Shown: positions 108 to 22,077 of the stretch, one piece after another | Position numbering within the stretch: position 1 is the first letter of the stretch | How the letters are laid out: the number at the start of each line of letters is the position of its first letter | Origin: Bacilli bacterium | Lineage (GTDB): Bacteria > Bacillota_I > Bacilli_A > RF39 > UBA660 | Reading direction: 5' to 3' | DNA length: 64,000 nucleotides | Assembly: GCA_031549195.1 (NCBI GenBank) | Contig: JAVBQF010000010.1 | Location: 1,443-65,442, forward strand | The notes under the pieces: generated by a model | Seen by the model: the letters and a program-made list of their open reading frames with translations, nothing else | Database searches by the model: none | Told to the model about the DNA's origin: nothing | Position numbers and translations under genes: made by a program

Positions 108-182
108 TATAATCACTCCATATATATATATTATCATATTTCCTAACATTTATTGGTAAAAAAAAGCACAAGATTAGCTGTG

Positions 183-719
183 CTATTTCAATGATTGAAT
201 ATGTTTTTTTATTTTCTTTATTGCCCAGTCATAGTGACTTGAAGTAACTGATGTGCAGTACTGTCCTAAAGTAGACCCACCAGCCCAAAAGAAATGTTTT
301 TTAGTAAATAATTCCTCATTGGAAAACGTTTCAATTAATATCATTACTTTTTTATGACTATCTTTTAACATATCTTTCGCTTTACCATATGGTGTATTTT
401 GGTGCTTCTTCCAGATCATCTCTACATTCATTTCACCATATGTCTTCCAATTATAAGGTTCTGGTAAAAAAGGCTTGTTTTCTCCCTTTTTATTAGCATC
501 TATCCAGTTTAATAGTAATTGATGCCACTCATAGATATGTATTAAAACATCTCTTATATTTTTATCTCTTTTCCAGTGTGCTTCTTTTCCTTTTGAAACA
601 TCAAAACTAAATAGGGTAGTTTGTTCTTCTTCAGTCATAGAATTAATAAAATTCCATAGTTCATTATACTTTTCATTTGCAAATTTAATTAAGTCTTCTT
701 TAATCACTGGTCTTGCCAT
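183..719 (-). CDS. ClbS/DfsB family four-helix-bundle protein (DUF1706, DinB superfamily)
   Basis: MARP..KEDLI start, AHWKRDKNIRDVLIHIYEWH, PYNWKTYG and TSSHYDWA motifs; AAGGAG RBS. Confidence 0.9.
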   Translation of the reverse strand: MARPVIKEDLIKFANEKYNELWNFINSMTEEEQTTLFSFDVSKGKEAHWKRDKNIRDVLIHIYEWHQLLLNWIDANKKGENKPFLPEPYNWKTYGEMNVEMIWKKHQNTPYGKAKDMLKDSHKKVMILIETFSNEELFTKKHFFWAGGSTLGQYCTSVTSSHYDWAIKKIKKHIQSLK

Positions 720-730
720 AATTTCTCCTT

Positions 731-1192
731 TTATAGTTTGATTTGACTGATATCTTCAACTATAATCCAGTCATCCATATTATTTTCTCTATTATACTTA
801 AAAGATTTAATTTCTTCTAAACTAGATATTTCATAAACAGCTAAGAATTTCTTTCCAGCCCATCTTTCAAATTGTTCCTTAGATAAATTCAACTCTCTTT
901 CATATTTTTTTATAAAAGCAATTGATTCATCTACTGTCATCTTTTCACTTTCTATAACATTAGAAATAATACCTTTATGTGTTACTAACAAATCCCCACC
1001 AGTTTCAACTAAATAAATAATATCATTTATTTTTGCTCTACCACCTAACGGACATTTTTTACCAGCAGCCCCTCTAATAATCATTGATTTTTCATTTTTC
1101 AAAAGTTTTTCTAATTCTTTCGCTTTACTATTTAAATAGACTAAGTGCTGTGCTTATCCTTCTTTTCCGACATACCATTCAGCTTTTCCCAT
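731..1192 (-). pseudogene. ASCH/PUA-like hypothetical protein gene with a premature TAA at codon 13
   Basis: ATG at 1192 with GAAAGGTGG RBS reads MGKAEWYVGKEG*AQHLVYLNSKAKELEKLLKNEKSMIIRGAAGKK; stop at 1154-1156 is in frame with ORF 731..1102. Confidence 0.7.
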
Positions 1193-1210
1193 TTTAATAC
1201 CACCTTTCAG

Positions 1211-1270
1211 TTATCTTTTCTCTTGATTTAATAATAGTGTAATTATTTCTAATAATCTATTTATTTGCAT
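1211..1270 (-). pseudogene. N-terminal relic of a YafY/WYL-family HTH regulator
   Basis: Translates MQINRLLEIITLLLNQEKR*, resembling the typical YafY start; TATAAT -10 upstream at about 1294-1299. Confidence 0.6.
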
Positions 1271-1355
1271 TTTATCACATACTTTCAATAAATATTATAC
1301 TACAAAAAAAGGACCTATAAGGTCACAATTGTAGTTTATAAACAAGAGTGAATAA

Positions 1356-2813
1356 TTACTTATCTCTAAATCTTCTTTCATCTCTATTTCTATTATCTTT
1401 TCTATCTTTATTATCTCTTCTGCCTCTAAATCCTCTACGATCTCTCCTATCGCCTCTATCTTCACTTCTTCTGGCATCGTTATTTCCTCTTTTTACTACA
1501 ACGGGAGGCTCACCAGTTAATGCTACTTCATTAATATCAGCTCTCTTTGATAGGCTTTCTATTAATACAGATACTAATTTTTCAGAACCAAATTCATTTA
1601 TTAATTCTGTTGCAAAATTTCTGGTCTTTGTAACATCGATTTCATGTAATTTCTTTAATATAGATTCTTTAACTTCACTATTTCTAGCGTCCATTACTTC
1701 TTCATAAGTAGGAATACTTTTCTCTGATATTTTAATATTTGTTTCCTTCTCAATTCTTCTTATATGATTAAGTTCAGTTTCTTTTATAAAGGAATATGAT
1801 ATACCATGCTTTTTCGCTCTACCAGTTCTACCTATTCTATGTATATAGAATTCTACTTCTTGTGGTAAATCAAAGTTATAAACATGTGAAATATCACTAA
1901 TATCCAATCCTCTTGCTGCAACATCTGTAGCTACTAAAATATTAATTTGATTTTCTCTAAATCTTTTCATAACTGCATTTCTTTGTTGCTGTGATAAGTC
2001 ACCATGAATACCAACTGATTTATAACCGCATTTATTAAGTGCTTCATTTAATTCATCGACTCTTCTTTTTGTTCTACCAAATATAATTGCTGATTTTGGA
2101 ACATCAACATCAAGTAATTTTGTTAAAGTAGAGAACTTTTGTTTCTCTTTCATTATAATATAGTATTGTTCAATATTAGTTGATGAACTCTTTTTATCTT
2201 TAACACTTATAAAATGAGACTCTTTCATAATAGATTTACTTAATTCAATTATTTGTTTTGATATAGTCGCACTGAAAAGAAGTGCTTGTTTATTTTCTGG
2301 TATTTCATTGTTGATGATTGTTATGTCTTCTTTGAATCCCTCTTTAAGCATTTCATCTGCTTCGTCTAATACAAAGAATTTAACATGACTTAAATCTAAT
2401 TTTTTACTTCTTAGATGATCATTAATTCTTCCTAGGGTACCAACTACTATAGCTGGATTGTTATTTAGCTCTTTAACTTGATCTCTAATTGACATACCAC
2501 CAACTAATGTAGCATATGACAAGTTCATATATTTACCTAGCTTTTTAATTTCTGTCATAATCTGCATCGCAAGCTCTCTTGTTGGTGCGACTATTAAGCA
2601 TTCTGTTTTCTTAGATTTAAAATCAATATTATTTAATAATGGTATAGCAAAAGCAGCTGTTTTACCAGTTCCTGTTTCAGCTTCAGCAATAATATTAGTA
2701 CCATCAAGTATTACAGGTATAGCCTCTGCTTGAATTGGCATCATTTCTTCAAATCCAATATCAGATATTGCTTTTTTAATTTGTTCTTTTATTTGTAGTT
2801 CTGTAAATTTCAT
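1356..2813 (-). CDS. cshA: DEAD-box RNA helicase (CshA-like)
   Basis: Q motif GFEEMMPIQ, AETGTGKT, PTRELA, DEAD, SAT, HRIGRTGR; Arg/Asp-rich C-terminal tail. Confidence 0.95.
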   Translation of the reverse strand: MKFTELQIKEQIKKAISDIGFEEMMPIQAEAIPVILDGTNIIAEAETGTGKTAAFAIPLLNNIDFKSKKTECLIVAPTRELAMQIMTEIKKLGKYMNLSYATLVGGMSIRDQVKELNNNPAIVVGTLGRINDHLRSKKLDLSHVKFFVLDEADEMLKEGFKEDITIINNEIPENKQALLFSATISKQIIELSKSIMKESHFISVKDKKSSSTNIEQYYIIMKEKQKFSTLTKLLDVDVPKSAIIFGRTKRRVDELNEALNKCGYKSVGIHGDLSQQQRNAVMKRFRENQINILVATDVAARGLDISDISHVYNFDLPQEVEFYIHRIGRTGRAKKHGISYSFIKETELNHIRRIEKETNIKISEKSIPTYEEVMDARNSEVKESILKKLHEIDVTKTRNFATELINEFGSEKLVSVLIESLSKRADINEVALTGEPPVVVKRGNNDARRSEDRGDRRDRRGFRGRRDNKDRKDNRNRDERRFRDK

Positions 2814-2828
2814 TGTAACTCCTCTTCG

Positions 2829-2866
2829 AAAAAAAAGAGAATCCTTCTAAATCAAAGGAATCCCTT
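2829..2866 (-). promoter_or_regulatory. Terminator-like hairpin plus U8 inside the cshA 5' UTR (candidate attenuator)
   Basis: Minus strand AAGGGATTCCTT-TGATTTAG-AAGGATTCTC-TTTTTTTT lies between the promoter and the GAGGAG RBS. Confidence 0.55.
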
Positions 2867-2879
2867 AATTAAAACCGTT

Positions 2880-2911
2880 ATTATATTAGCACAGTTAATG
2901 AATTTAGTCAA
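2880..2911 (-). promoter_or_regulatory. SigA-type promoter of cshA
   Basis: TTGACT-17 bp-TAATAT on the minus strand, with an overlapping TATAAT. Confidence 0.6.
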
Positions 2912-2994
2912 ATTATTATCATATAAATACTGATTAATAATAACTGTGATATAATTATAATTGATAAATATAAAATTAAGGGAGGAATAATTAC

Positions 2995-3297
2995 ATGTCA
3001 AAAGTCGTTATGTACATATCGTTCAAATTAATAAAGGGAAAATCTGTACCAGATTTCTTACTTGCCTCAGAAAAACTTAATAATGAGTATATGTCTAAAC
3101 AAAAAGGTTATATTTCGTGGGAGCAACTTAATAATGGAGATACTTGGGTAGACTTTCTAACATTTGAAACTATGGAGGATGTTAAAGAAGTAGAAAATAA
3201 CCCTAATCCAAGTGATTCAGCATTAAAATTTTATTCTTTTATAAATATGAGTACTTGCAAAGTTCAATATTTTACTGTTGAAAGAAGTTATAAATAG
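2995..3297 (+). CDS. ABM-like (dimeric alpha/beta barrel) hypothetical protein
   Basis: 100 aa; FLLASEKL..EYMSKQKGYISW...WVDFLTFET pattern; GGAGG RBS. Confidence 0.7.
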   Translation: MSKVVMYISFKLIKGKSVPDFLLASEKLNNEYMSKQKGYISWEQLNNGDTWVDFLTFETMEDVKEVENNPNPSDSALKFYSFINMSTCKVQYFTVERSYK

Positions 3298-3306
3298 GAG
3301 AAAATT

Positions 3307-3882
3307 ATGGCTGAAAGGTTTAGGTGTTTTGGAACTGGAACACCAATTTATGAAAAATACCATGATAATGAATGGGGAAGGCCTGTATACGACGATTATA
3401 AGTTATTTGAAATGTTAGTTTTAGAAGGCATGCAAGCTGGATTATCATGGATAACAGTACTAAAAAAAAGAGACGCATATAGCAAAGCTTTTGATAACTT
3501 TGATACTAAGAAGATAGCTCTTTATGATGATAAAAAGATTGAAGAACTTATGCTTAATGCTGGAATAATTAGAAATCGTTTAAAAATCAATTCTATTATT
3601 ATAAATGCTAAATTATTTTTAAAAATCATGGAGACTGGTTCGTTTAGTGATATGCTTTGGAAATATGTAGATAATAAACCTATTGTTGGTCACTATAAAA
3701 GTTTTAAAGATATGCCCTTAACTACAGCTATTTCTGATAAAATTAGTAAGGATCTTAAAAAAATGGGATTCAAGTTTGTTGGGACAACTATAATTTATTC
3801 TTTTATGCAAGCTGTTGGTATGGTAAACGATCATCTAATGGAATGCCCTACTTATGAAGAAATATTGCAATCACAAAAATAA
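3307..3882 (+). CDS. tag: DNA-3-methyladenine glycosylase I
   Basis: YHDNEWG, LFEMLVLEGMQAGLSW, GIIRNRLKI, FKFVGTTIIYSFMQAVGMVNDHL..C. Confidence 0.97.
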   Translation: MAERFRCFGTGTPIYEKYHDNEWGRPVYDDYKLFEMLVLEGMQAGLSWITVLKKRDAYSKAFDNFDTKKIALYDDKKIEELMLNAGIIRNRLKINSIIINAKLFLKIMETGSFSDMLWKYVDNKPIVGHYKSFKDMPLTTAISDKISKDLKKMGFKFVGTTIIYSFMQAVGMVNDHLMECPTYEEILQSQK

Positions 3883-3930
3883 AAAGATGTTATTCTTTCT
3901 TATATATTTAGAAAGAAGAGCATCTTTTTT
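3881..3930. terminator. Bidirectional intrinsic terminator between convergent tag and DUF2000 genes
   Basis: AAAAAGATG..TTCTTTCT / AGAAAGAA..CATCTTTTT inverted repeat. Confidence 0.75.
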
Positions 3931-3946
3931 ATTTATCCTTAGTACT

Positions 3947-4375
3947 TTAATCTAAATTCCATAATTGAAACCTACCAGTAATTTCATTTACATCTTTGGT
4001 ATCACCATAAATAATTGCACCCAAATATTCAAACTTATCATTCTCTTTTGACTCTATTGAATTTACTAATTCTTCATCTGTCCGGGTCTCTAACATCTCT
4101 TTAGGATAGTCTGCTACCAATAGCTTTTTATTTGCTTTAGCAGTATCAATTGCTGTTTTCAATTTCCCTGCTTTAACTTTAGTTACAATAAATGGGAATC
4201 TACTTATACCTGTATGAGTTATCCCAGAGTTATCAGTAATAATTGATTTTCCCATTATTTCATTATCAGAGTATTTACCAATTGCAACAGCAAGGTGTCC
4301 TATTACATTAAGTGCTGTTGATGGATCAACATTTGTAGCTATAATTCCAACTATTTTCTTATCTTCATAATTCAT
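3947..4375 (-). CDS. DUF2000 family protein (peptidyl-tRNA hydrolase II-like fold)
   Basis: KKIVGIIA..ALNVIGHLAVAIG..EYLGAIIYG...VNEITGRFQLW; start corrected to ATG 4375 behind AAAGGAGG. Confidence 0.8.
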   Translation of the reverse strand: MNYEDKKIVGIIATNVDPSTALNVIGHLAVAIGKYSDNEIMGKSIITDNSGITHTGISRFPFIVTKVKAGKLKTAIDTAKANKKLLVADYPKEMLETRTDEELVNSIESKENDKFEYLGAIIYGDTKDVNEITGRFQLWNLD

Positions 4376-13905: not shown

Positions 13906-15130
13906 TATAAAAGAGTTAGTAGATAATTGTGAAGAAAGATTAAAAGATATCTTTAAAAGAGTAGATGAAATTAATTTTTTAAATAGTAAAAAAGTATTAG
14001 ATGCATTTCATAATAATAGAGTATCAGAAACTGATTTTATTTCTACAACTGGATATGGATATAATGATATGGGGAGAGATAAGATAGAGAGAATATATGC
14101 AGATATATTTAAAGCAGAAGATGCTTTAGTGCGTAATCAATTTATTTCAGGTTCGCATGCTTTATCAACAACTTTATTTGCACTTCTTCGCCCAGAGGAT
14201 ATCCTTTTGTCTATAACAGGTAAACCGTATGATACTTTAGATGAAGTCATAGGAATAACACAAAATGCTAGTTCTTTGCAATCATTTAATATTAAATATA
14301 TGCAAATAGATTTAATAGATGATGATTTTGATTACAATAGTATAAAAGAAGTTTTAATGAATAATAAAATAAAAGTAATAGAGATTCAAAGATCGAAAGG
14401 GTATTCAACTAGAAAAAGTATTTCAATAAATAGACTAGAGAAAATAATAAGCTTTATAAGAGATATTGATAAAGAAGTTATTATAATGATAGACAATTGT
14501 TACTGTGAGTTTGTAAGCGAAAAAGAACCAATTGAGATAGGTGCAGATATAGCTGTGGGATCACTTATTAAAAACTTAGGTGGTGGTATTGCTAATAATG
14601 GAGCCTATGTCGTTGGAAATCATAATCTAATAGAACTTGTAGCAGAAAGATTAAATCTCCCAGGAGAAGGAAGAGAAGTAGGCCCTTCACTTGGTGCTAA
14701 TAAATTGTTTTTGCAAGGCCTTTATATGGCACCATCAGCAGTATCCTCAAGTGTTAAGACATCCATATTGACAAGTCTAGTAATGCAAGAGCTAGGATAT
14801 AATGTTGATCCTTTATATAATGAAGAAAGAATAGATATAGTTCAAAATATTATATTCAATGATAAAAATCTTTTAATAAGATTTTGTCAGGGTATACAAT
14901 CAGGTTCTGCAATAGATTCTTATACTTTACCAATACCTGCTCCTATGCCAGGATACGATTCAGAAGTAATAATGGCATCTGGCTCTTTTGTTCAAGGATC
15001 TTCAATAGAATTATCTTGTGATGGACCTCTTAGAGAACCTTATATTGCTTACATGCAAGGATCACTTACATATGAATATGGTAAGTTAGGATTAATAAGC
15101 TCCTTGGAATATTTAAATGGATCAAAATAA
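13898..15130 (+). CDS. Methionine gamma-lyase family PLP protein (YnbB/aluminium-resistance type)
   Basis: TGYGYNDMGRD, ISGSHA, QRSKGY, DNCYCEF, GSLIKNLGGG, GSFVQGSSIELSCDGP. Confidence 0.93.
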   Translation: MPNIKELVDNCEERLKDIFKRVDEINFLNSKKVLDAFHNNRVSETDFISTTGYGYNDMGRDKIERIYADIFKAEDALVRNQFISGSHALSTTLFALLRPEDILLSITGKPYDTLDEVIGITQNASSLQSFNIKYMQIDLIDDDFDYNSIKEVLMNNKIKVIEIQRSKGYSTRKSISINRLEKIISFIRDIDKEVIIMIDNCYCEFVSEKEPIEIGADIAVGSLIKNLGGGIANNGAYVVGNHNLIELVAERLNLPGEGREVGPSLGANKLFLQGLYMAPSAVSSSVKTSILTSLVMQELGYNVDPLYNEERIDIVQNIIFNDKNLLIRFCQGIQSGSAIDSYTLPIPAPMPGYDSEVIMASGSFVQGSSIELSCDGPLREPYIAYMQGSLTYEYGKLGLISSLEYLNGSK

Positions 15131-15535
15131 TATGTTCGACAAATCAATGACAAATTGAATTTAGATAAAAAATGCTTTACATTGGAGCCTCTTTTTTACC
15201 CTTTTTTTACCAAGCTTTATTATAGGCTTAAATTGTGGGGTTTTGGTTTAAAAACAGAAAATAAAAAATGTTAAAATTTCAAAAATAGAAAAAACGAGAA
15301 AGTCTTAAACTTGAATTTTAAATATTTTTGGAAAAATAATAATAAAACGGTTTTATAATAAAATCCTTATTTTTCAACACAAAACGATTGTTAATAAATT
15401 AAAGTGATAAAACCAAAAAAGTGAAAAAGTAAAAAAATGTAAAAATGTAAAGTAACTAAAAATTAATTTTTTGCTAAATTCGTTTAATTATAAGGGTTTC
15501 GTTAAAGGAACATAAAAAACAATGAAAAAAGGGTG

Positions 15536-15564
15536 TTGACTTTCCTTTTTTTTAGTATTAAATT
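15536..15564 (+). promoter_or_regulatory. SigA-type promoter of nrdD
   Basis: TTGACT-17 bp-TAAATT; GGGAGG RBS downstream. Confidence 0.55.
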
Positions 15565-15603
15565 TATCTTAAAGAAGACAGCAGTAGGGAGGTATTTTAA
15601 AAA

Positions 15604-17907
15604 ATGGGAGAGGATTTTTTAACAACATTAAAGGTTATAAAAAGAAATGGTAAAAAAGTAGACTTTAATGGTACTAAAATAGCAGTTGCTATTAAGAAAG
15701 GTTTTGACAGTGTCATTAGCCGCGAGGAAGATGAAGAAGTTAAACCTTATACAGAAAAAGATATTCAAAAAGTATACCATGAGGTTATTACTAGAATAGA
15801 AAAAGATTATGCAACTGAAGACAAAATTAAAATAGAAGAAGTTCAAGACTTAATTGAGAACGCATTACAAAAATTAGGTTATGAAGATGTCTATAGATCA
15901 TTCTCAGAGTATCGTGAAAGAAGAAGAGAATCGCGTGAAATGTTCTCAGATGACAAGAAATTACATAAATTCCTAAAAACACTTGAAGGACTGAGTTTGA
16001 AATCATCTGTTGAAGACGATACAAAAAGGGATAATGCAAATGTTGATGGTGATACAGCAATGGGTACTATGCTTCAATATGGAAGTACAGTATCAAAGGA
16101 ATTTGCAAAAGCATATTTAATGAAAAAGAAATATTCAGACGCTCATGATGAAGGAATGATTCATATACATGATATGGACTTTCTACCAATGGGTACTACA
16201 ACTTGTATGCAAATAGATTTAGATAAACTGTTTAAAAATGGTTTTTCAACAGGGCATGGACATCTAAGGGGACCAAAAGATATTATGTCTTATTCAGCTC
16301 TTGCTGCTATTGCAATACAATCAAATCAAAATGATCAACATGGGGGACAAAGTATTCCAGCATTTGATTATTATCTAGCACCAGGAGTACTTAATACATT
16401 CAAAAAACAATTTAAACAGACAATTTCAGATATATTAGATTATTCAGGATTTGGTGACTTTATCAATATGGCAAGTATTGCTAAAGAGATAGATAAACTT
16501 GATTGTATAGAGTTCGAATTAGACACGTTTGCAAGGTTTATAAAAGATTCAGATCAAGTAGAAAGAATATTTAAAGTTGCCAAAGATAAAGCAATGCAAA
16601 AAACAAATAGGATAACATATCAAGCAATGGAAGCATTTGTACATAATTTAAATACAATGCATTCAAGAGCAGGAGCACAAGTACCATTTTCATCAGTAAA
16701 TCTTGGAACTGATATAACTCCAGAGGGAAAAATGGTAACTGAAAATTACCTATTAGCACTTGATGCTGGATTAGGTCAAGGAGAAACTCCAATATTTCCA
16801 ATAACTATATTTAAAGTAAAAGAGGGAGTTAACTATAATGAAAAGGATCCTAACTACAATCTATTTAAACTAGCTTGTAGAGTGTCTGCTAAAAGATTAT
16901 TCCCTAATTTCTCATTCTTAGATGCGCCATTCAACAAGCAATTCTATAAAGAAGGAGACTTTACTACAGAAGTTGGATATATGGGATGTAGAACTAGGGT
17001 TCTTGCAAATGTAGTAGATCCAGACAAATCAGTAACTCCAGGAAGAGGAAACTTATCTTTCACTTCACTTAACTTACCAAGAATTGGAATCAAATATGGT
17101 ATTGTTAATGGAAGAGAAAAAGCTGATATGAAAGCATTCTTTGAAGAATTAGATGAGGTAATGGAATTAGTTAAAGATCAATTACTTGACCGCTTTGAAA
17201 TTCAATGTAATAAAAGAGTGTATAATTTTCCATTCTTGTTAGGTCAAGGCGTATGGATAGATTCTGAAAAATTAAAGAATACTGATAGATTAAGAAAATC
17301 ATTAAAGCATGGAACACTAAGTATTGGATTTATTGGATTAGCAGAATGTCTAAAAGCTTTAACTGGAGAACACCATGGTGAAAGTGAAGAATCACAAAAA
17401 TTAGGAATAAAAATAGTAAAACACATGAGAGAAAAATGTGATGAGTTTGCAGCAAAATATAACTTAAACTTTACTTGTCTTGCAACTCCTGCTGAGGGAT
17501 TATCGGGGAGATTTACAAGTATAGATAAAGCTATATATGGTAAGATTAAAGGTGTAACAGATAAACCTTACTATACAAATTCATTCCATGTACCAGTTTA
17601 TTACAATACAACAATTACTAAAAAAATCAAAACAGAAGCACCATATCATGCATTTACAAATGCAGGACACATATCATATATTGAACTAGACGGAGATCCA
17701 ACGGAAAACTTAGAAGCTTTTGAAAAAGTTATAAGACTTATGAAGGAGTCAGGTATCGGTTATGGAGCTATTAATCATCCAGTTGATAGAGACCCAGTAT
17801 GTGGATATGTTGGGGTAATTAAAGATGTTTGCCCAAGATGTGGAAGACGCGAGGGTGAAGCAGTAAGTTTAGAAAGGATTACAAGCCTAAATTGTGGCTG
17901 TAAATAA
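15604..17907 (+). CDS. nrdD: Anaerobic (class III) ribonucleoside-triphosphate reductase large chain, lacking the glycyl-radical loop
   Basis: ATP cone (VIKRNG), HIHDMDF, TTTC, MGCRT, ATPAEGLSGRF, DPVC..CPRC; ends ...NCGCK with no RxxGY. Confidence 0.95.
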   Translation: MGEDFLTTLKVIKRNGKKVDFNGTKIAVAIKKGFDSVISREEDEEVKPYTEKDIQKVYHEVITRIEKDYATEDKIKIEEVQDLIENALQKLGYEDVYRSFSEYRERRRESREMFSDDKKLHKFLKTLEGLSLKSSVEDDTKRDNANVDGDTAMGTMLQYGSTVSKEFAKAYLMKKKYSDAHDEGMIHIHDMDFLPMGTTTCMQIDLDKLFKNGFSTGHGHLRGPKDIMSYSALAAIAIQSNQNDQHGGQSIPAFDYYLAPGVLNTFKKQFKQTISDILDYSGFGDFINMASIAKEIDKLDCIEFELDTFARFIKDSDQVERIFKVAKDKAMQKTNRITYQAMEAFVHNLNTMHSRAGAQVPFSSVNLGTDITPEGKMVTENYLLALDAGLGQGETPIFPITIFKVKEGVNYNEKDPNYNLFKLACRVSAKRLFPNFSFLDAPFNKQFYKEGDFTTEVGYMGCRTRVLANVVDPDKSVTPGRGNLSFTSLNLPRIGIKYGIVNGREKADMKAFFEELDEVMELVKDQLLDRFEIQCNKRVYNFPFLLGQGVWIDSEKLKNTDRLRKSLKHGTLSIGFIGLAECLKALTGEHHGESEESQKLGIKIVKHMREKCDEFAAKYNLNFTCLATPAEGLSGRFTSIDKAIYGKIKGVTDKPYYTNSFHVPVYYNTTITKKIKTEAPYHAFTNAGHISYIELDGDPTENLEAFEKVIRLMKESGIGYGAINHPVDRDPVCGYVGVIKDVCPRCGRREGEAVSLERITSLNCGCK

Positions 17908-17928
17908 AAAGGAGAGGGAAGAAGTATT

Positions 17929-18102
17929 ATGAGAAAAGAAGTAGAAATTGTAACATCACCAAAAGAAGAAAAAACAACAGGAGATGGAGTTAAATTCGAA
18001 CGCATTAGAAGAATAACTGGATATCTTGTTGGAACAGTAGATAGATTTAACAATAGCAAACAAGCAGAAGAACACGATAGAGTAAAACATAAAGATAACT
18101 AA
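17929..18102 (+). CDS. 57-aa stand-alone NrdD glycyl-radical domain (not in ORF track)
   Basis: MRKEVEIVTSPKEEKTTGDGVKFERIRRITGYLVGTVDRFNNSKQAEEHDRVKHKDN; own AGGAGAGG RBS; stop overlaps nrdG start (TAATG). Confidence 0.92.
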   Translation: MRKEVEIVTSPKEEKTTGDGVKFERIRRITGYLVGTVDRFNNSKQAEEHDRVKHKDN

Positions 18103-18644
18103 TGAAAATAAGACTTGCAAATCCACTTGAAGCTGACAGTATAGTTGATGGTCCTGGATTAAGAGCGGTTATTTGGACACAAGGTTGTAAACATAACTGT
18201 AAGGGATGTCATAATCCGCACACGCATTCATTTAAAGGCGGATACTTAACTGATACAGAAGAGTTAAAAAAAGAAATAAGTAGTTTAATGCTTATAGAAG
18301 GAATAACATTATCTGGTGGAGATCCTATTGAACAAGTCAGCGCATGTTTGGATATTGCTAAATACTGTAAACAAAATGGTCTAAGTGTTTGGTGTTGGAC
18401 AGGATACACATATGAAGAACTTATGGATATGTGTGAAACAAATAAAGAATTATTAGAACTCTTAGAAAATATTGATGTCATAGTTGATGGAAGATTTGAA
18501 CTTGAAAAAAGAAGTTTAGATATCAAGTTTAGAGGATCTACAAATCAAAGACTGATTGATATGAGAAAAAGCATGAAACAGGGAAAGATAGTTCTACTAA
18601 AAGAAAAAAATAAAGAAGTAAAGAAAGAGCAAATATTTATATAA
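18102..18644 (+). CDS. nrdG: Anaerobic RNR activating radical SAM enzyme
   Basis: DSIVDGPGLR, CKHNCKGC (CxxxCxxC), TLSGGDP, DGRF, FRGSTNQR. Confidence 0.97.
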   Translation: MKIRLANPLEADSIVDGPGLRAVIWTQGCKHNCKGCHNPHTHSFKGGYLTDTEELKKEISSLMLIEGITLSGGDPIEQVSACLDIAKYCKQNGLSVWCWTGYTYEELMDMCETNKELLELLENIDVIVDGRFELEKRSLDIKFRGSTNQRLIDMRKSMKQGKIVLLKEKNKEVKKEQIFI

Positions 18645-18712
18645 ATGCTCTTTTTAAATACTTTAATAAAGCGTTATTTTATGATAAAATAATATTATAT
18701 CGAGGAGGGACT

Positions 18713-19318
18713 ATGGAAAATAATATTCAAATAGTAATGTTTTTTAGTAAGAATGTATCATATAATCCTACTAAAATAGCAGCAAAAATAAATGAATTAA
18801 TACCTTTATTAGGTCAACCACTAATATTACCACCAGCAAAGGAAGATAATGGACAACCATTAATTATATTTAATCAAAATAATACGTTTCAATTAACTAC
18901 AAATCTTGGCAGTGTATCATTTATATTTTTAAGCGAACATTTAAAAGAATATAAAAAGATAGTATTACAAGTATTAGATATCTTTGATAAAGAAGATATA
19001 GGCTTTTCTAGGATTGGTTATGTAGCGTCAAATGCTCTTTCTAAAAAGGATATAGCAAAATTTAAGAAAAGAATATTTAAGGATGAGGAACTTCTTGAAG
19101 CAGAAGATTTTCAACTTGCTTGGTATAAAAGTATAATTTTAGATGGAACAAAAGTTAATTGCTGGGAGCGATATTTTACAGATCATGATCAAAGTGACAA
19201 ATTAGTATCCATATTTGATATTAATACCCCACTTAATGAAGAATATAATGTTTCAGAAGACTTTGTGGATAGATATATAAGCAATTGTAATAAATTTATA
19301 GAAGATAAATTAAAGTAG
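18713..19318 (+). CDS. Hypothetical protein
   Basis: 201-aa ORF; GAGGAGG RBS; downstream terminator. Confidence 0.75.
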   Translation: MENNIQIVMFFSKNVSYNPTKIAAKINELIPLLGQPLILPPAKEDNGQPLIIFNQNNTFQLTTNLGSVSFIFLSEHLKEYKKIVLQVLDIFDKEDIGFSRIGYVASNALSKKDIAKFKKRIFKDEELLEAEDFQLAWYKSIILDGTKVNCWERYFTDHDQSDKLVSIFDINTPLNEEYNVSEDFVDRYISNCNKFIEDKLK

Positions 19319-19431
19319 CAAAGAGAAATAATTCTCTTTTTTATTAGGCATATTTTTAATTTCACAATAAAAATAAGTTTTCAAAATATAAAAGTAAATG
19401 TTATAATTATTACCATAGGATTGGTGAACAT

Positions 19432-22077
19432 ATGAATTTGCATAGTATGGATATAAAAGAAGTATATGAAAAATTAAATACAAGTGACAAAGGACTTAGT
19501 GGTAGTGAAGTAAATAAAAGACTAGAAGAATATGGTAAAAATGAACTGCCTAAAGAGAAAAAAGCAGGTATAGCAAAAGTGTTTTTTAGTCAATTTAAGA
19601 GTTCTATTGTTTATATAATGATACTGGCAGCAATATTTTCTTTCTTACTAAAAGAATATGTTGACACTATAGCAATTATAATAATTATATTAGTAGATGC
19701 GATACTTGGAACTCTTCAAGAATGGAAAGCGGGAAAAGAAGCTGAAAGTCTACAAAATCTAATAAAGGTACAAACTAAAGTACTTAGAGACAATAAAGAA
19801 ATGATGATTGATTCGGAGGATCTAGTAATTGGTGACGTTGTATTATTAGAGTCAGGGAATAAAGTATCAGCAGATTTGCGCATAATAGAATCATCCAACT
19901 TAACTATAGATGAATCAGTATTAACAGGAGAATCTATTGCTGCAACTAAAAGTAATACTACATTAAAAGAGAATATCAGTATAGTTGAAAGAAAAAATAT
20001 TGCTTATGCAGGTACTAGTGTAACAACAGGAAGAGCAGTTGGTATTGTCATAGCAGTAGGAGTCGATACCGAGGTGGGAAAGATTTCTAGTAAGGTTCTT
20101 GAAACAAAAAGTGAAGAAACACCCCTTGTTATTAGAATGGAAAAGTTAACAAAGCAAATTAGCATATTAATATTAGTAATAGCAGCAGTATTAATTGTTA
20201 TATTACTATTAAAAGGAGAACAGTTAGGGGAAATACTTTTATCTGTTACAGCTTTATCAGTATCCGCAATGCCAGAAGGACTCCCTCTAGCATTAACACT
20301 AGCACTCACAATTGGTTCAAATAGAATGGGTAAGAAAAATGTTGTTGTAAAAAAGCTTAATTCTGTTGAAAGTTTAGGAAGTTGTACAGTTATTGCAAGT
20401 GATAAGACAGGAACACTTACAGTTAATGAACAGACAGCCCAAAGAATAGTATTAGCAGATGGTTCTACTTATGAAGTAACAGGAACAGGTTATAATGGTG
20501 AAGGTGAAGTAATAGCAATTGATGATGCTGATATAAATAAAGCAAAAGAGATAAGCAAACTAGGTATGTTAAATAATGAAGCAACATTAAAAAAAGAAGA
20601 TAACAAATGGAGAAGTTTTGGAGATTCCATTGATATAGCATTCTTAGCTTTAGGAGAAAAATTAAAAGTAAAAACAAATACTAGTATCCTAGGGGAAATC
20701 CCATATGAGTCTGAGAAAAAGTATTCAGCAGTATTTTATAAGGAAGATGGAAAAAATTATTGTACAGCAAAAGGATCGGTAGAGAAGATATTAGAATTCT
20801 GTGACTCTATGATAGTAGATGGTAAAAGAGTACCAATTGATAAGAATCAAATAAAAGGACAAAATGAAGCTTTAGCAGGAGATGGATATAGAATTATTGC
20901 TTTAGCAAAAAAAGAGTGTGTGGAAAAAGAAAATTCTTATGTGGAAGGAGATATTCCTCAATTAGATTTTATAGGTTTAGTCGCATTTATTGATCCAATA
21001 AGAAAAGAGGCAAAGGATTCTGTTGGCAAATGTAAAAAAGCGGGTATAAAGGTTGTAATGATAACAGGAGACCATCCATTAACTGCCTTTGCTATTTCTA
21101 AAGAATTAGGTATTGCTAGTAATTATGATGAAGTAACGACAGGTACAGAAATAGAGGAATACTTAGCAAAAGGAAATAAAGCCTTCGATAACTTTGTAAA
21201 AGAAAAAAGAGTATTCTCAAGAGTTACTCCAATACAAAAACTAGAAATAGTTAATTCTTTTAAAAGACAAGGTGAGTTTATTGCAGTAACAGGAGACGGT
21301 GTTAATGATGCTCCTGCAATAAAAGCAGCAAATATCGGGGTTGCAATGGGAAGTGGAACAGATGTTGCTAAAGAAACTGGAACAATGATTATAATAGATG
21401 ATAACTTTATGTCAATAGTAGCGGGGATTGAAGAAGGAAGAAATGCTTATAGTAATATAAGAAAAGTAGTATATATGCTTTTATCAACAGGTATCTCAGA
21501 AGTTTTATTTTTCACTTTATCAATAGTATTCAACTTACCAATGCCATTAATGGCTATTCAGCTTTTATGGTTAAATATAGTGACAGACGGGTTTCAAGAT
21601 ATAGCTTTATCTTTTGAAAAAGAAGATGGGAAAATAATGAAAGAGAAACCAAGGGATCCTAAAGAATCAGTTTTTGATAGACTAATGACACAAGAAACTT
21701 TATTAGCAGGATTCAGTATAGGATTAATTGTATTCTCTGTTTGGATATATCTACTAAAGGTACTAAATATGGATGCAGCTAATGCTAGAGGATATGTAAT
21801 GTTACTTATGGTATTTATGCAAAATATTCAAGTTATTAACTGTCGCAGCGAAAAAAAATCAGCATTTAAAATACCTCTTTCAAATAACTGGTTTGTAGTA
21901 GCTAGTATAACTGCAGCAATTATACTTCAAATTATAGTTATGGAAGTACCAATATTTAATACATTCTTACAAGTTGATGGAATGCCTATATTAGATATAA
22001 TATTAATTTTCTTAGTCTCACTTCCAGTACTATTTATAATGGAAATATTTAAAAAAATAAAATTTAAAGAAGATTAA
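19432..22077 (+). CDS. Cation-translocating P-type ATPase (type IIA, Ca2+-like)
   Basis: TGES, PEGL, DKTGTLT, MITGD, TGDGVNDAPA; multiple TM helices. Confidence 0.95.
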   Translation: MNLHSMDIKEVYEKLNTSDKGLSGSEVNKRLEEYGKNELPKEKKAGIAKVFFSQFKSSIVYIMILAAIFSFLLKEYVDTIAIIIIILVDAILGTLQEWKAGKEAESLQNLIKVQTKVLRDNKEMMIDSEDLVIGDVVLLESGNKVSADLRIIESSNLTIDESVLTGESIAATKSNTTLKENISIVERKNIAYAGTSVTTGRAVGIVIAVGVDTEVGKISSKVLETKSEETPLVIRMEKLTKQISILILVIAAVLIVILLLKGEQLGEILLSVTALSVSAMPEGLPLALTLALTIGSNRMGKKNVVVKKLNSVESLGSCTVIASDKTGTLTVNEQTAQRIVLADGSTYEVTGTGYNGEGEVIAIDDADINKAKEISKLGMLNNEATLKKEDNKWRSFGDSIDIAFLALGEKLKVKTNTSILGEIPYESEKKYSAVFYKEDGKNYCTAKGSVEKILEFCDSMIVDGKRVPIDKNQIKGQNEALAGDGYRIIALAKKECVEKENSYVEGDIPQLDFIGLVAFIDPIRKEAKDSVGKCKKAGIKVVMITGDHPLTAFAISKELGIASNYDEVTTGTEIEEYLAKGNKAFDNFVKEKRVFSRVTPIQKLEIVNSFKRQGEFIAVTGDGVNDAPAIKAANIGVAMGSGTDVAKETGTMIIIDDNFMSIVAGIEEGRNAYSNIRKVVYMLLSTGISEVLFFTLSIVFNLPMPLMAIQLLWLNIVTDGFQDIALSFEKEDGKIMKEKPRDPKESVFDRLMTQETLLAGFSIGLIVFSVWIYLLKVLNMDAANARGYVMLLMVFMQNIQVINCRSEKKSAFKIPLSNNWFVVASITAAIILQIIVMEVPIFNTFLQVDGMPILDIILIFLVSLPVLFIMEIFKKIKFKED

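Follow-up and report, generated by a model that had tools for sequence, protein, structure and literature searches.

A locus at 15604–18644 in the window, a 64,000-nt stretch of contig JAVBQF010000010.1 from a Bacilli bacterium with a 1.3-Mb genome, very probably encodes a working class III (anaerobic) ribonucleotide reductase (RNR) made of two obligate subunits, with the radical glycine supplied in trans. All coordinates are positions in this window. The large chain, NrdD, would bring the ATP-cone and zinc ribbon as well as the catalytic barrel, with Cys462 as its thiyl cysteine. A separate 57-residue protein would provide the last ~40 residues of a usual NrdD, that is the finger loop with Gly31 and the C-terminal tail. 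NrdG, translated from an overlapping start, would abstract the Gly31 hydrogen with S-adenosylmethionine (SAM), and, as in one-chain NrdD, the radical would then move to Cys462. The split may have arisen when the junction was duplicated and a stop, a Shine-Dalgarno (SD) site and a new start were then placed between the copies. To our knowledge, in every glycyl-radical enzyme characterised the radical glycine is part of the catalytic chain.

Gene organisation

15604..17907, + strand: nrdD large chain, 767 amino acids (aa) plus TAA; class III RNR catalytic body that lacks the glycyl-radical loop
15631..15927, + strand: ATP-cone, residues 10–108 (PF03477, E 4.1e-15)
16987..16989, + strand: codon of Cys462, in YMGCRTRV; presumed thiyl-radical cysteine
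17773..17847, + strand: zinc-ribbon region NHPVDRDPVCGYVGVIKDVCPRCGR, residues 724–748, on the large chain; aligned on the zinc-site region of structures 8p23 and 1h78
17848..17904, + strand: large-chain tail REGEAVSLERITSLNCGCK, residues 749–767; duplicated junction strand and terminal Cys pair
17908..17928, + strand: 21-nt spacer carrying the SD site ggagaggg of the small gene
17929..18102, + strand: small subunit gene, 57 aa plus TAA, with its own SD site and ATG; variable K/E-rich leader (residues 1–17), junction strand GDGVKFERI (18–26), loop RIRRITGYLVG (25–35), C-terminal tail
18019..18021, + strand: codon GGA of Gly31; presumed radical glycine
18102..18644, + strand: nrdG, radical-SAM activase, 180 aa (TIGR02491, PF13353)

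The nrdD open reading frame (ORF) ends in ...CPRCGRREGEAVSLERITSLNCGCK and its translation lacks an RxxGY motif. The original prediction had placed the stop of nrdD at 17907 without this motif, and both the ORF coordinates and the end of the profile match agree. It had also described the ORF at 17929–18102, with its own ribosome-binding site, the motif RIRRITGYLVG and a TAATG overlap with nrdG, and this agrees base for base. The letters directly 5' of the small-gene ATG are aaaaggagagggaagaagtatt, and the 57-aa product is MRKEVEIVTSPKEEKTTGDGVKFERIRRITGYLVGTVDRFNNSKQAEEHDRVKHKDN. In the source genome this ATG lies 21 nt past the nrdD TAA, which is 7 codons in the same frame, as had been read. 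The small-gene TAA and the nrdG ATG have one base in common. The small gene is co-transcribed and translationally coupled with nrdG, though contigs cannot prove a single transcript.

Two chains make up one NrdD

Positions 3–719 of the 746 in NCBIfam NF005497 are covered by the large chain (1020.9 bits, cut-off 764), as are positions 1–540 of the 562 in Pfam PF13597 (625.3 bits, cut-off 26.2). The peptide matches the ends of the same two models, at positions 710–744 of NF005497 (E 1.6e-12) and 532–562 of 562 in PF13597 (E 9.9e-08). The NF005497 ranges show that the two chains together correspond to one NrdD, overlapping by ~10 model positions, and this overlap is the duplicated junction (EGEAVSLERI on the large chain, TGDGVKFERI on the peptide). 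A Pfam scan of the peptide at E<=0.1 returned PF13597 only and not PF01228; the sole PF01228 match in the source genome is a 751-aa ORF similar to pyruvate formate-lyase (PFL) on a different contig. NrdG scores 155.1 bits against TIGR02491, for which the equivalog cut-off is 126.1.

The closest solved structure to the large chain is that of Prevotella copri NrdD (8p23, 565 bits). Cys462 is aligned on the MGCRTRV cysteine of this protein, at chain position 420, and Gly31 on the G of QRITGYLVG. The deposited chain has 743 residues and the protein of the paper 739, and from this 4-residue offset chain position 420 is taken to be Cys416 and the QRITGYLVG glycine to be Gly711. Cys416 is reported to adjoin the radical glycine Gly711 in P. 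copri NrdD (PMC11226230). Cys462 does not vary among the 15 split large chains compared. In the alignment, the radical-glycine position of 8p23 is occupied by Ser761 in the large chain, and the motif is found on the 57-aa chain instead.

The locus has the family membership, ATP-cone, barrel, MGCRTRV loop, zinc ribbon, RITGYLVG motif and adjoining nrdG of the one-chain NrdD and NrdG systems of P. copri (8p23), phage T4 (1h78/1hk8) and E. coli. It differs from these in that the chain is interrupted after the zinc ribbon and before the radical loop, with ~10 junction residues on both parts, and in that a 57-aa protein, having a start of its own, bears the radical glycine. The zinc ribbon has three Cys (DPVC...CPRC) rather than CxxC...CxxC, a form that is also present in unsplit relatives. 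No match to PF02867 (class I/II large subunit) and no second PF13597/NrdD locus were found in the source genome, which is 95.2% complete, and the small gene is single-copy there.

The split is conserved

Among the 24 further genera of the same family in an initial sample of 40 relatives, 11 have the split. These loci end nrdD with TAA or TAG and place the small gene in frame 0 (three of the 11), +1 (six) or +2 (two); in several, the frame of the small gene overlaps the end of nrdD. All 11 split loci examined have an ATG with an SD-like site 2–21 nt after the nrdD stop. A conserved split with its own ribosome-binding site, which the original prediction had named as a check, is found in these genera. 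All three frames likewise occur in 52 further split loci, where TAA, TAG and TGA stops are all used.

These loci bear on whether the split is only apparent, with readthrough of the TAA or a frameshift yielding one chain. The in-frame position of the small ORF, 7 codons after the TAA in the source genome, would suit such recoding. The use of three frames, the overlaps with the nrdD end, the varied stops and the SD site and ATG at every one of the 11 loci, together with the frames and stops of the 52 further loci, make it very improbable, and an Rfam scan of 14800–19600 at E<=0.1 returned no match.

The peptide is matched in 203 of 401 genomes sampled from the family. Among the 150 matches listed, beyond which there are 56 more, at least 115 are in frames of 49–77 aa (split) and at least 32 in frames of 783–827 aa (unsplit). 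Another three of the 150 are in frames of 182–451 aa, probably shortened where a contig ends. Both parts of the enzyme are under purifying selection across 15 genera. For the peptide core, the median ratio of nonsynonymous to synonymous substitution (dN/dS) is 0.11, with synonymous differences exceeding nonsynonymous ones (pS>pN) in 105 of 105 pairs, and 23 of the peptide positions are invariant. The large chains have a mean column identity of 79%, and dN/dS in the zinc ribbon is 0.057. Constraint on the large-chain tail is weaker but real (dN/dS 0.37; pS>pN in 98 of 105 pairs).

The locus is also present in an RNA library. Two contigs of X2, a metatranscriptomic run from the same study, cover 15591..18608 with no differing letters and no gaps. 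One of 2011 nt (record 9) lies on 15591–17601 and one of 1035 nt (record 14) on 17574–18608, the latter taking in the small gene and, on either side, the nrdD TAA and most of nrdG. Bins 15300–15573 and 18725–18998 have no cover in this run, which is not counted as marking transcript ends, and from contig depth the small gene and nrdD cannot be ranked. Of two other runs, DNA run X1 yielded no more than short pieces that fitted in part, and RNA run X3 next to nothing.

A sense codon at 17905–17907 in reads or relatives would mean one continuous NrdD. Relatives keep the stop, often with the small gene in another frame, and the RNA-library contig has the same TAA. A pseudogene or assembly error, placing a spurious stop in a continuous nrdD, is therefore regarded as already refuted and has next to no probability. 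The arrangement could suggest such an error only in this one genome, by being in frame; the junction is identical in the RNA-library contig, the split is kept in more than 100 genomes, and there is strong purifying selection on both parts. Since the junction is duplicated, removal of the stop alone would not restore a normal NrdD.

Several relatives have a second, distant NrdD-type gene that is unsplit, scoring ~270–290 bits against NF005497, with 720–746 aa and reaching position 744. It occurs beside the split one in genomes G001 (contig C39) and G017 (contig C3), and none is present in the source genome.

The duplicated junction and the large-chain tail

The consensus of 67 split large chains after CPxCGR is [RKH][EAD]-G-E-[GA]-V-[SP]-x-E-[KR]-[LI]-K-x-L, and that of the 67 peptides is K-x-V-G-E-G-V-[GK]-F-E-R-I-R-R-I-T-G-Y-L-V-G. 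At the same place, 41 unsplit relatives have T-E-[AD]-D-G-V-K-F-E-R-I-R-R-I-T-G. Both junction copies of the split forms thus read GEGV where the unsplit forms have xDGV. The suggestion that the junction was duplicated at the split extends in this way beyond the source genome, as the duplication is present in all split forms examined and matches the ~10-position overlap of the profile hidden Markov model (HMM).

The tail that follows CPxC in the split forms is 12–53 residues long, with a median of 23. Recognisable types include a short ...SLNCGCK, ...ERVKNASLNTCGGR, a long ...EKLKELRKKYPNMPxFxGxE and ...LGVYKNYNSETIGYHGDPNEE..., drawn from loci L048, L049, L051, L054, L059, L072 and L083 and from loci labelled Clostridia. 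With several such types, the tail has diversified since the split. Of the 67 split loci, 27 have at least two terminal Cys on the large chain, 7 on the peptide end, 1 on both and 34 on neither. A terminal Cys pair on either chain is therefore present in 33 of 67 split loci and in none of 41 unsplit ones. In the window the pair is at 17893–17904, and it also occurs in L015, L043, L055, L060, L094, L100 and others (CGCK, CDCR, CCK...). It might act as a metal clamp or a redox tail.

Two other origins of the tail were rejected. A decayed Gly loop, with LERITSL aligned on LQRITGY, fits the source genome and its near relatives only, and the 67-sequence consensus E[KR][LI]KxL gives it no general support. 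For an intein or trans-splicing, the tail of 19 aa and the leader of 17 aa are too short, and the Pfam scan found no such domain.

Predicted complex

Large-chain residues 125–767 and the peptide, each with a 15-row alignment, were modelled as a complex. The interface score (ipSAE) is 0.70 (0.65, 0.73 and 0.70 in the separate runs), against 0.00 for the best of three controls; the score mark is reached by 116 of 157 solved complexes and by 2 of 215 mismatched pairs. The association of NrdD with the peptide that the original prediction had put forward thus passes in the model, though possibly through memory of one-chain NrdD structures, since 8p23 and others have been solved. The pLDDT of the modelled partner is at least 68, and the runs, with 157–163 contacts, have at least 85% of these in common.

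In the model, the interface includes peptide residues 14–32, large-chain residues 462–463 and tail residues 748, 750–757 and 759. Peptide residues 21–26 pair with large-chain residues 727–732, and peptide residues 18–23 with tail residues 750–753, both antiparallel, residue numbers rising on one strand as they fall on the other; the lowest-error pairs link 750–753 with peptide residues 18–23. The peptide strand G18–R25 is accordingly modelled as docking antiparallel between strand 727–732 and the tail strand 750–757. From this pairing, the duplicated strand would be the dock for the small protein. The Gly loop is predicted to reach Cys462, and the C-terminal tail of the peptide to lie on the surface, with its residues 50–51 touching large-chain residue 665.

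Evolution of the split

On trees of the enzyme body built with IQ-TREE (quick tree) and FastTree, the split forms cluster, but in a patchy way. There are 4 state changes among 38 sequences, of which at least 2 are forced by well-supported branches (IQ-TREE quick tree), and at least 13 among 110 sequences after two duplicate rows were dropped. When the body alignment is divided into thirds, 16, 14 and 15 state changes are found, against ~35 for shuffled labels. Simple recombination of the 3' end is not supported, the C-terminal third showing no sign of tracking the split state better than the other thirds. The GEGV expected from simple re-fusion was seen in no unsplit sequence among the 41 relatives. 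The trees are compatible both with one origin and lateral spread of a 3' module and with repeated splitting. nrdG is beside 51 of 67 split loci and 9 of 43 unsplit loci, a difference that is partly due to the short downstream flanks of many unsplit loci.

The interleaving of split and unsplit forms on the body tree is one argument that the split was fixed neutrally. The duplication would have cut the gene, and the pieces would form a permanent complex co-translationally, with neither benefit nor exchange. The occurrence of split and unsplit relatives in similar small-genome gut bacteria fits this, and NrdJa/NrdJb of P. aeruginosa are a precedent for a split with no obvious advantage, as given in PMC4520616. 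The purifying selection that still acts on the tail and the gain of the terminal Cys pair in split forms alone argue the other way. A neutral split is quite conceivable, with a likelihood that falls somewhat short of even.

Several points weigh against a functional two-subunit enzyme with the origin outlined above. The complex model may show likeness to known NrdD rather than binding. At least 13 state changes among 110 sequences are a patchy distribution that a single duplication fits poorly. Contigs of an RNA library may hold DNA carry-over, and a contig is not a transcript and cannot prove a single one. The support for the 57-aa product and for the enzyme is at the level of genes, an RNA library and a model. 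An organism with a 1.3-Mb genome could also live on deoxynucleoside salvage, and being the only RNR detected in the genome is therefore no proof of function.

Distribution in gut anaerobes

Among proteins of 31–100 aa, 7986 of 8000 scored candidates match the peptide at E<=1e-3. The best of these are 56–60 aa long and, where named, are called 'hypothetical protein' or 'anaerobic ribonucleoside-triphosphate reductase'. Representatives at 50% identity gave 1984 matches at E<=1e-3 and 488 at E<=1e-10, and the best 150 of the 1984 are all 51–170 aa. A scan of one genome per species found at least 592 relatives from 600 pattern matches. The best 80 of these loci comprise 55 split (52 identified by script, and L055, L082 and L114 by inspection), 23 unsplit and 2 with a short peptide and no adjoining body.

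Split loci belong, among others, to records titled uncultured Bacilli, Clostridia, Oscillospiraceae, Butyricicoccus, Fibrobacter (in 3 cases) and Treponemataceae, and to one isolate, although labels of metagenome-assembled genomes are unreliable, one record of the same family being titled Ignavibacteriales. The split is common in gut anaerobes. Similar splits had been anticipated in other Bacillota, and the species-level scan places them there and beyond.

Small subunits without a body

When viral stretches (IMG/VR) were searched with the peptide alignment, 472 of 516 were found to encode relatives. Among the best 80 viral loci, a short ORF with the motif stands without any body within ±3.5 kb in 71, as judged by an HMM of 15 large chains. 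The other nine have a body, which is unsplit in five, adjacently split in one, apart from the peptide in two and preceded by the peptide in one. All four whole phage records (52–76 kb; two rated 100% complete) match PF13597 at positions 533–562 only, and NrdG is absent from all five phage records searched. The GenBank phage collection at E<=1e-5 yielded only 7 unannotated 'Bacteriophage sp.' fragments and no cultured phage. Extra copies are also seen in cells, where one genome has a body with an adjacent peptide and a second, unlinked peptide. In genome G422 (behind locus L046), two bodies (PF13597 positions 1–531 only) and two peptides are on four contigs (C169, C177, C187 and C44), which reflects either unlinked genes or a mixed bin.

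These lone pieces raise a different explanation of the split, that of an exchangeable radical cartridge. The small subunit, once cleaved by O2 at Gly31, would leave, and a fresh NrdG-activated copy would restore the 88-kDa body, with phages bringing cartridges of their own to drive the reductase body of the host for phage DNA synthesis. The 71 viral loci and the four whole phage records that carry the small piece only point this way, as phage records without a body imply that the phage peptide would act only on a host body. The second unlinked peptide in one genome, and the two bodies with two unlinked peptides in another, do likewise. The spare parts YfiD/GrcA and T4 Y06I of PFL are a precedent (PMC8683613). 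Exchange of the small subunit is plausible from the lone phage peptides and the extra unlinked copy, which are circumstantial. On the other side, the source genome has one copy, which is coupled to nrdD and nrdG and gives no hint of being regulated separately. The burial of the loop by 157–163 contacts in the model argues for slow exchange, and IMG/VR records can be mis-called or fragmentary. An exchangeable cartridge is accordingly rather unlikely as the reason for the split. It is weighed here against neutral fixation, the more credible of the two, which leaves the lone phage pieces and the extra unlinked copies unexplained.

In viral locus L153 (3446–5892), the small radical gene is directly upstream of the NrdD body, the reverse of the cellular order. 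Viral contigs L146, L150 and L151 have an unsplit NrdD of 1157 aa (ORF 171–3641), on which the body HMM matches in two pieces (12–467 and 459–766). From the sequence, the ~390 extra residues by the Cys-loop region look like an intein.

Comparison with known split and spare-part systems

GrcA/YfiD of E. coli and Y06I of T4 are, like the peptide, small stand-alone glycyl-radical loop proteins that must dock into a larger body, with phage-borne copies in both cases (PMC8683613). The peptide differs in being homologous to the C-terminus of NrdD and not to that of PFL. Because the large chain lacks a radical loop, the small protein would be a normal subunit rather than a spare as in GrcA/YfiD. Only YfiD and Y06I are given as validated spare parts in a 2021 paper, where those of other glycyl-radical enzymes are speculated upon (PMC8683613), and formate lyases are the sole class of such enzymes with identified spare parts according to a 2026 review (PMC13450708).

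NrdJa/NrdJb of P. aeruginosa are similar in that an ancestral single-chain RNR is encoded by two adjacent operon genes, both of which are needed (PMC4520616). They are class II and B12-dependent, in contrast to the present enzyme, with a different cut site and a small piece of 229 aa, and the residue carrying the radical is not separated (PMC4520616). Neither chain has homology to NrdJ, the proteins being of NrdD type and the genome free of PF02867, and NrdJa/NrdJb are an analogy only. In its 2015 description this pair is called the only split RNR of an organism other than a virus (PMC4520616).

In phages, nrdD is the RNR gene most often in pieces, with split RNR genes reported for 16 phage genomes and nrdD affected in 6 of them (PMC3653736). 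The phage split nrdD genes, such as those of T4 and Aeromonas phage phiAS4, have introns, inteins or endonuclease genes inserted in them, and splicing mostly restores them (PMC3653736). The locus described here instead has 21 nt between the genes, no mobile element and a duplicated junction. No paper describing a split NrdD was found among open-access PMC papers and bioRxiv. The split NrdD is apparently undescribed, and a real variant of a known enzyme.

The finding corrects annotation, as the small protein is a 'hypothetical protein' in many public records and the large chain looks truncated. The 6.6-kDa radical-loop protein is a ready-made system for the study of how an activase recognises a free radical domain and activates it. 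The split enzyme also lets the insertion of a radical domain into the barrel and its removal be tested, as well as the repair of O2 damage to an essential DNA-precursor enzyme by the swap of a small part. If the cartridge explanation were true, this would be the first glycyl-radical enzyme in which normal catalysis uses a separately encoded, swappable radical-site subunit, and the first system of spare parts beyond the formate lyases. The lone small piece in phages suggests a new kind of auxiliary metabolic gene.

Flanking sequence and a possible fusion

A promoter scan found 32 promoter-like sites against 25.6±5.1 in shuffles, that is none above shuffles, and no terminators. Directly 3' of nrdG is a 201-aa ORF (18713–19318, + strand) with no Pfam or NCBIfam match at E<=0.1. 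At locus L020 (G036:C52), from the same class, an ORF of 912 aa (1489–4224) covers NrdD positions 1–743 and continues into an NrdG-like C-terminus, ...QYRGSENQRVIDLKK..., and this frame may be an NrdD-NrdG fusion.

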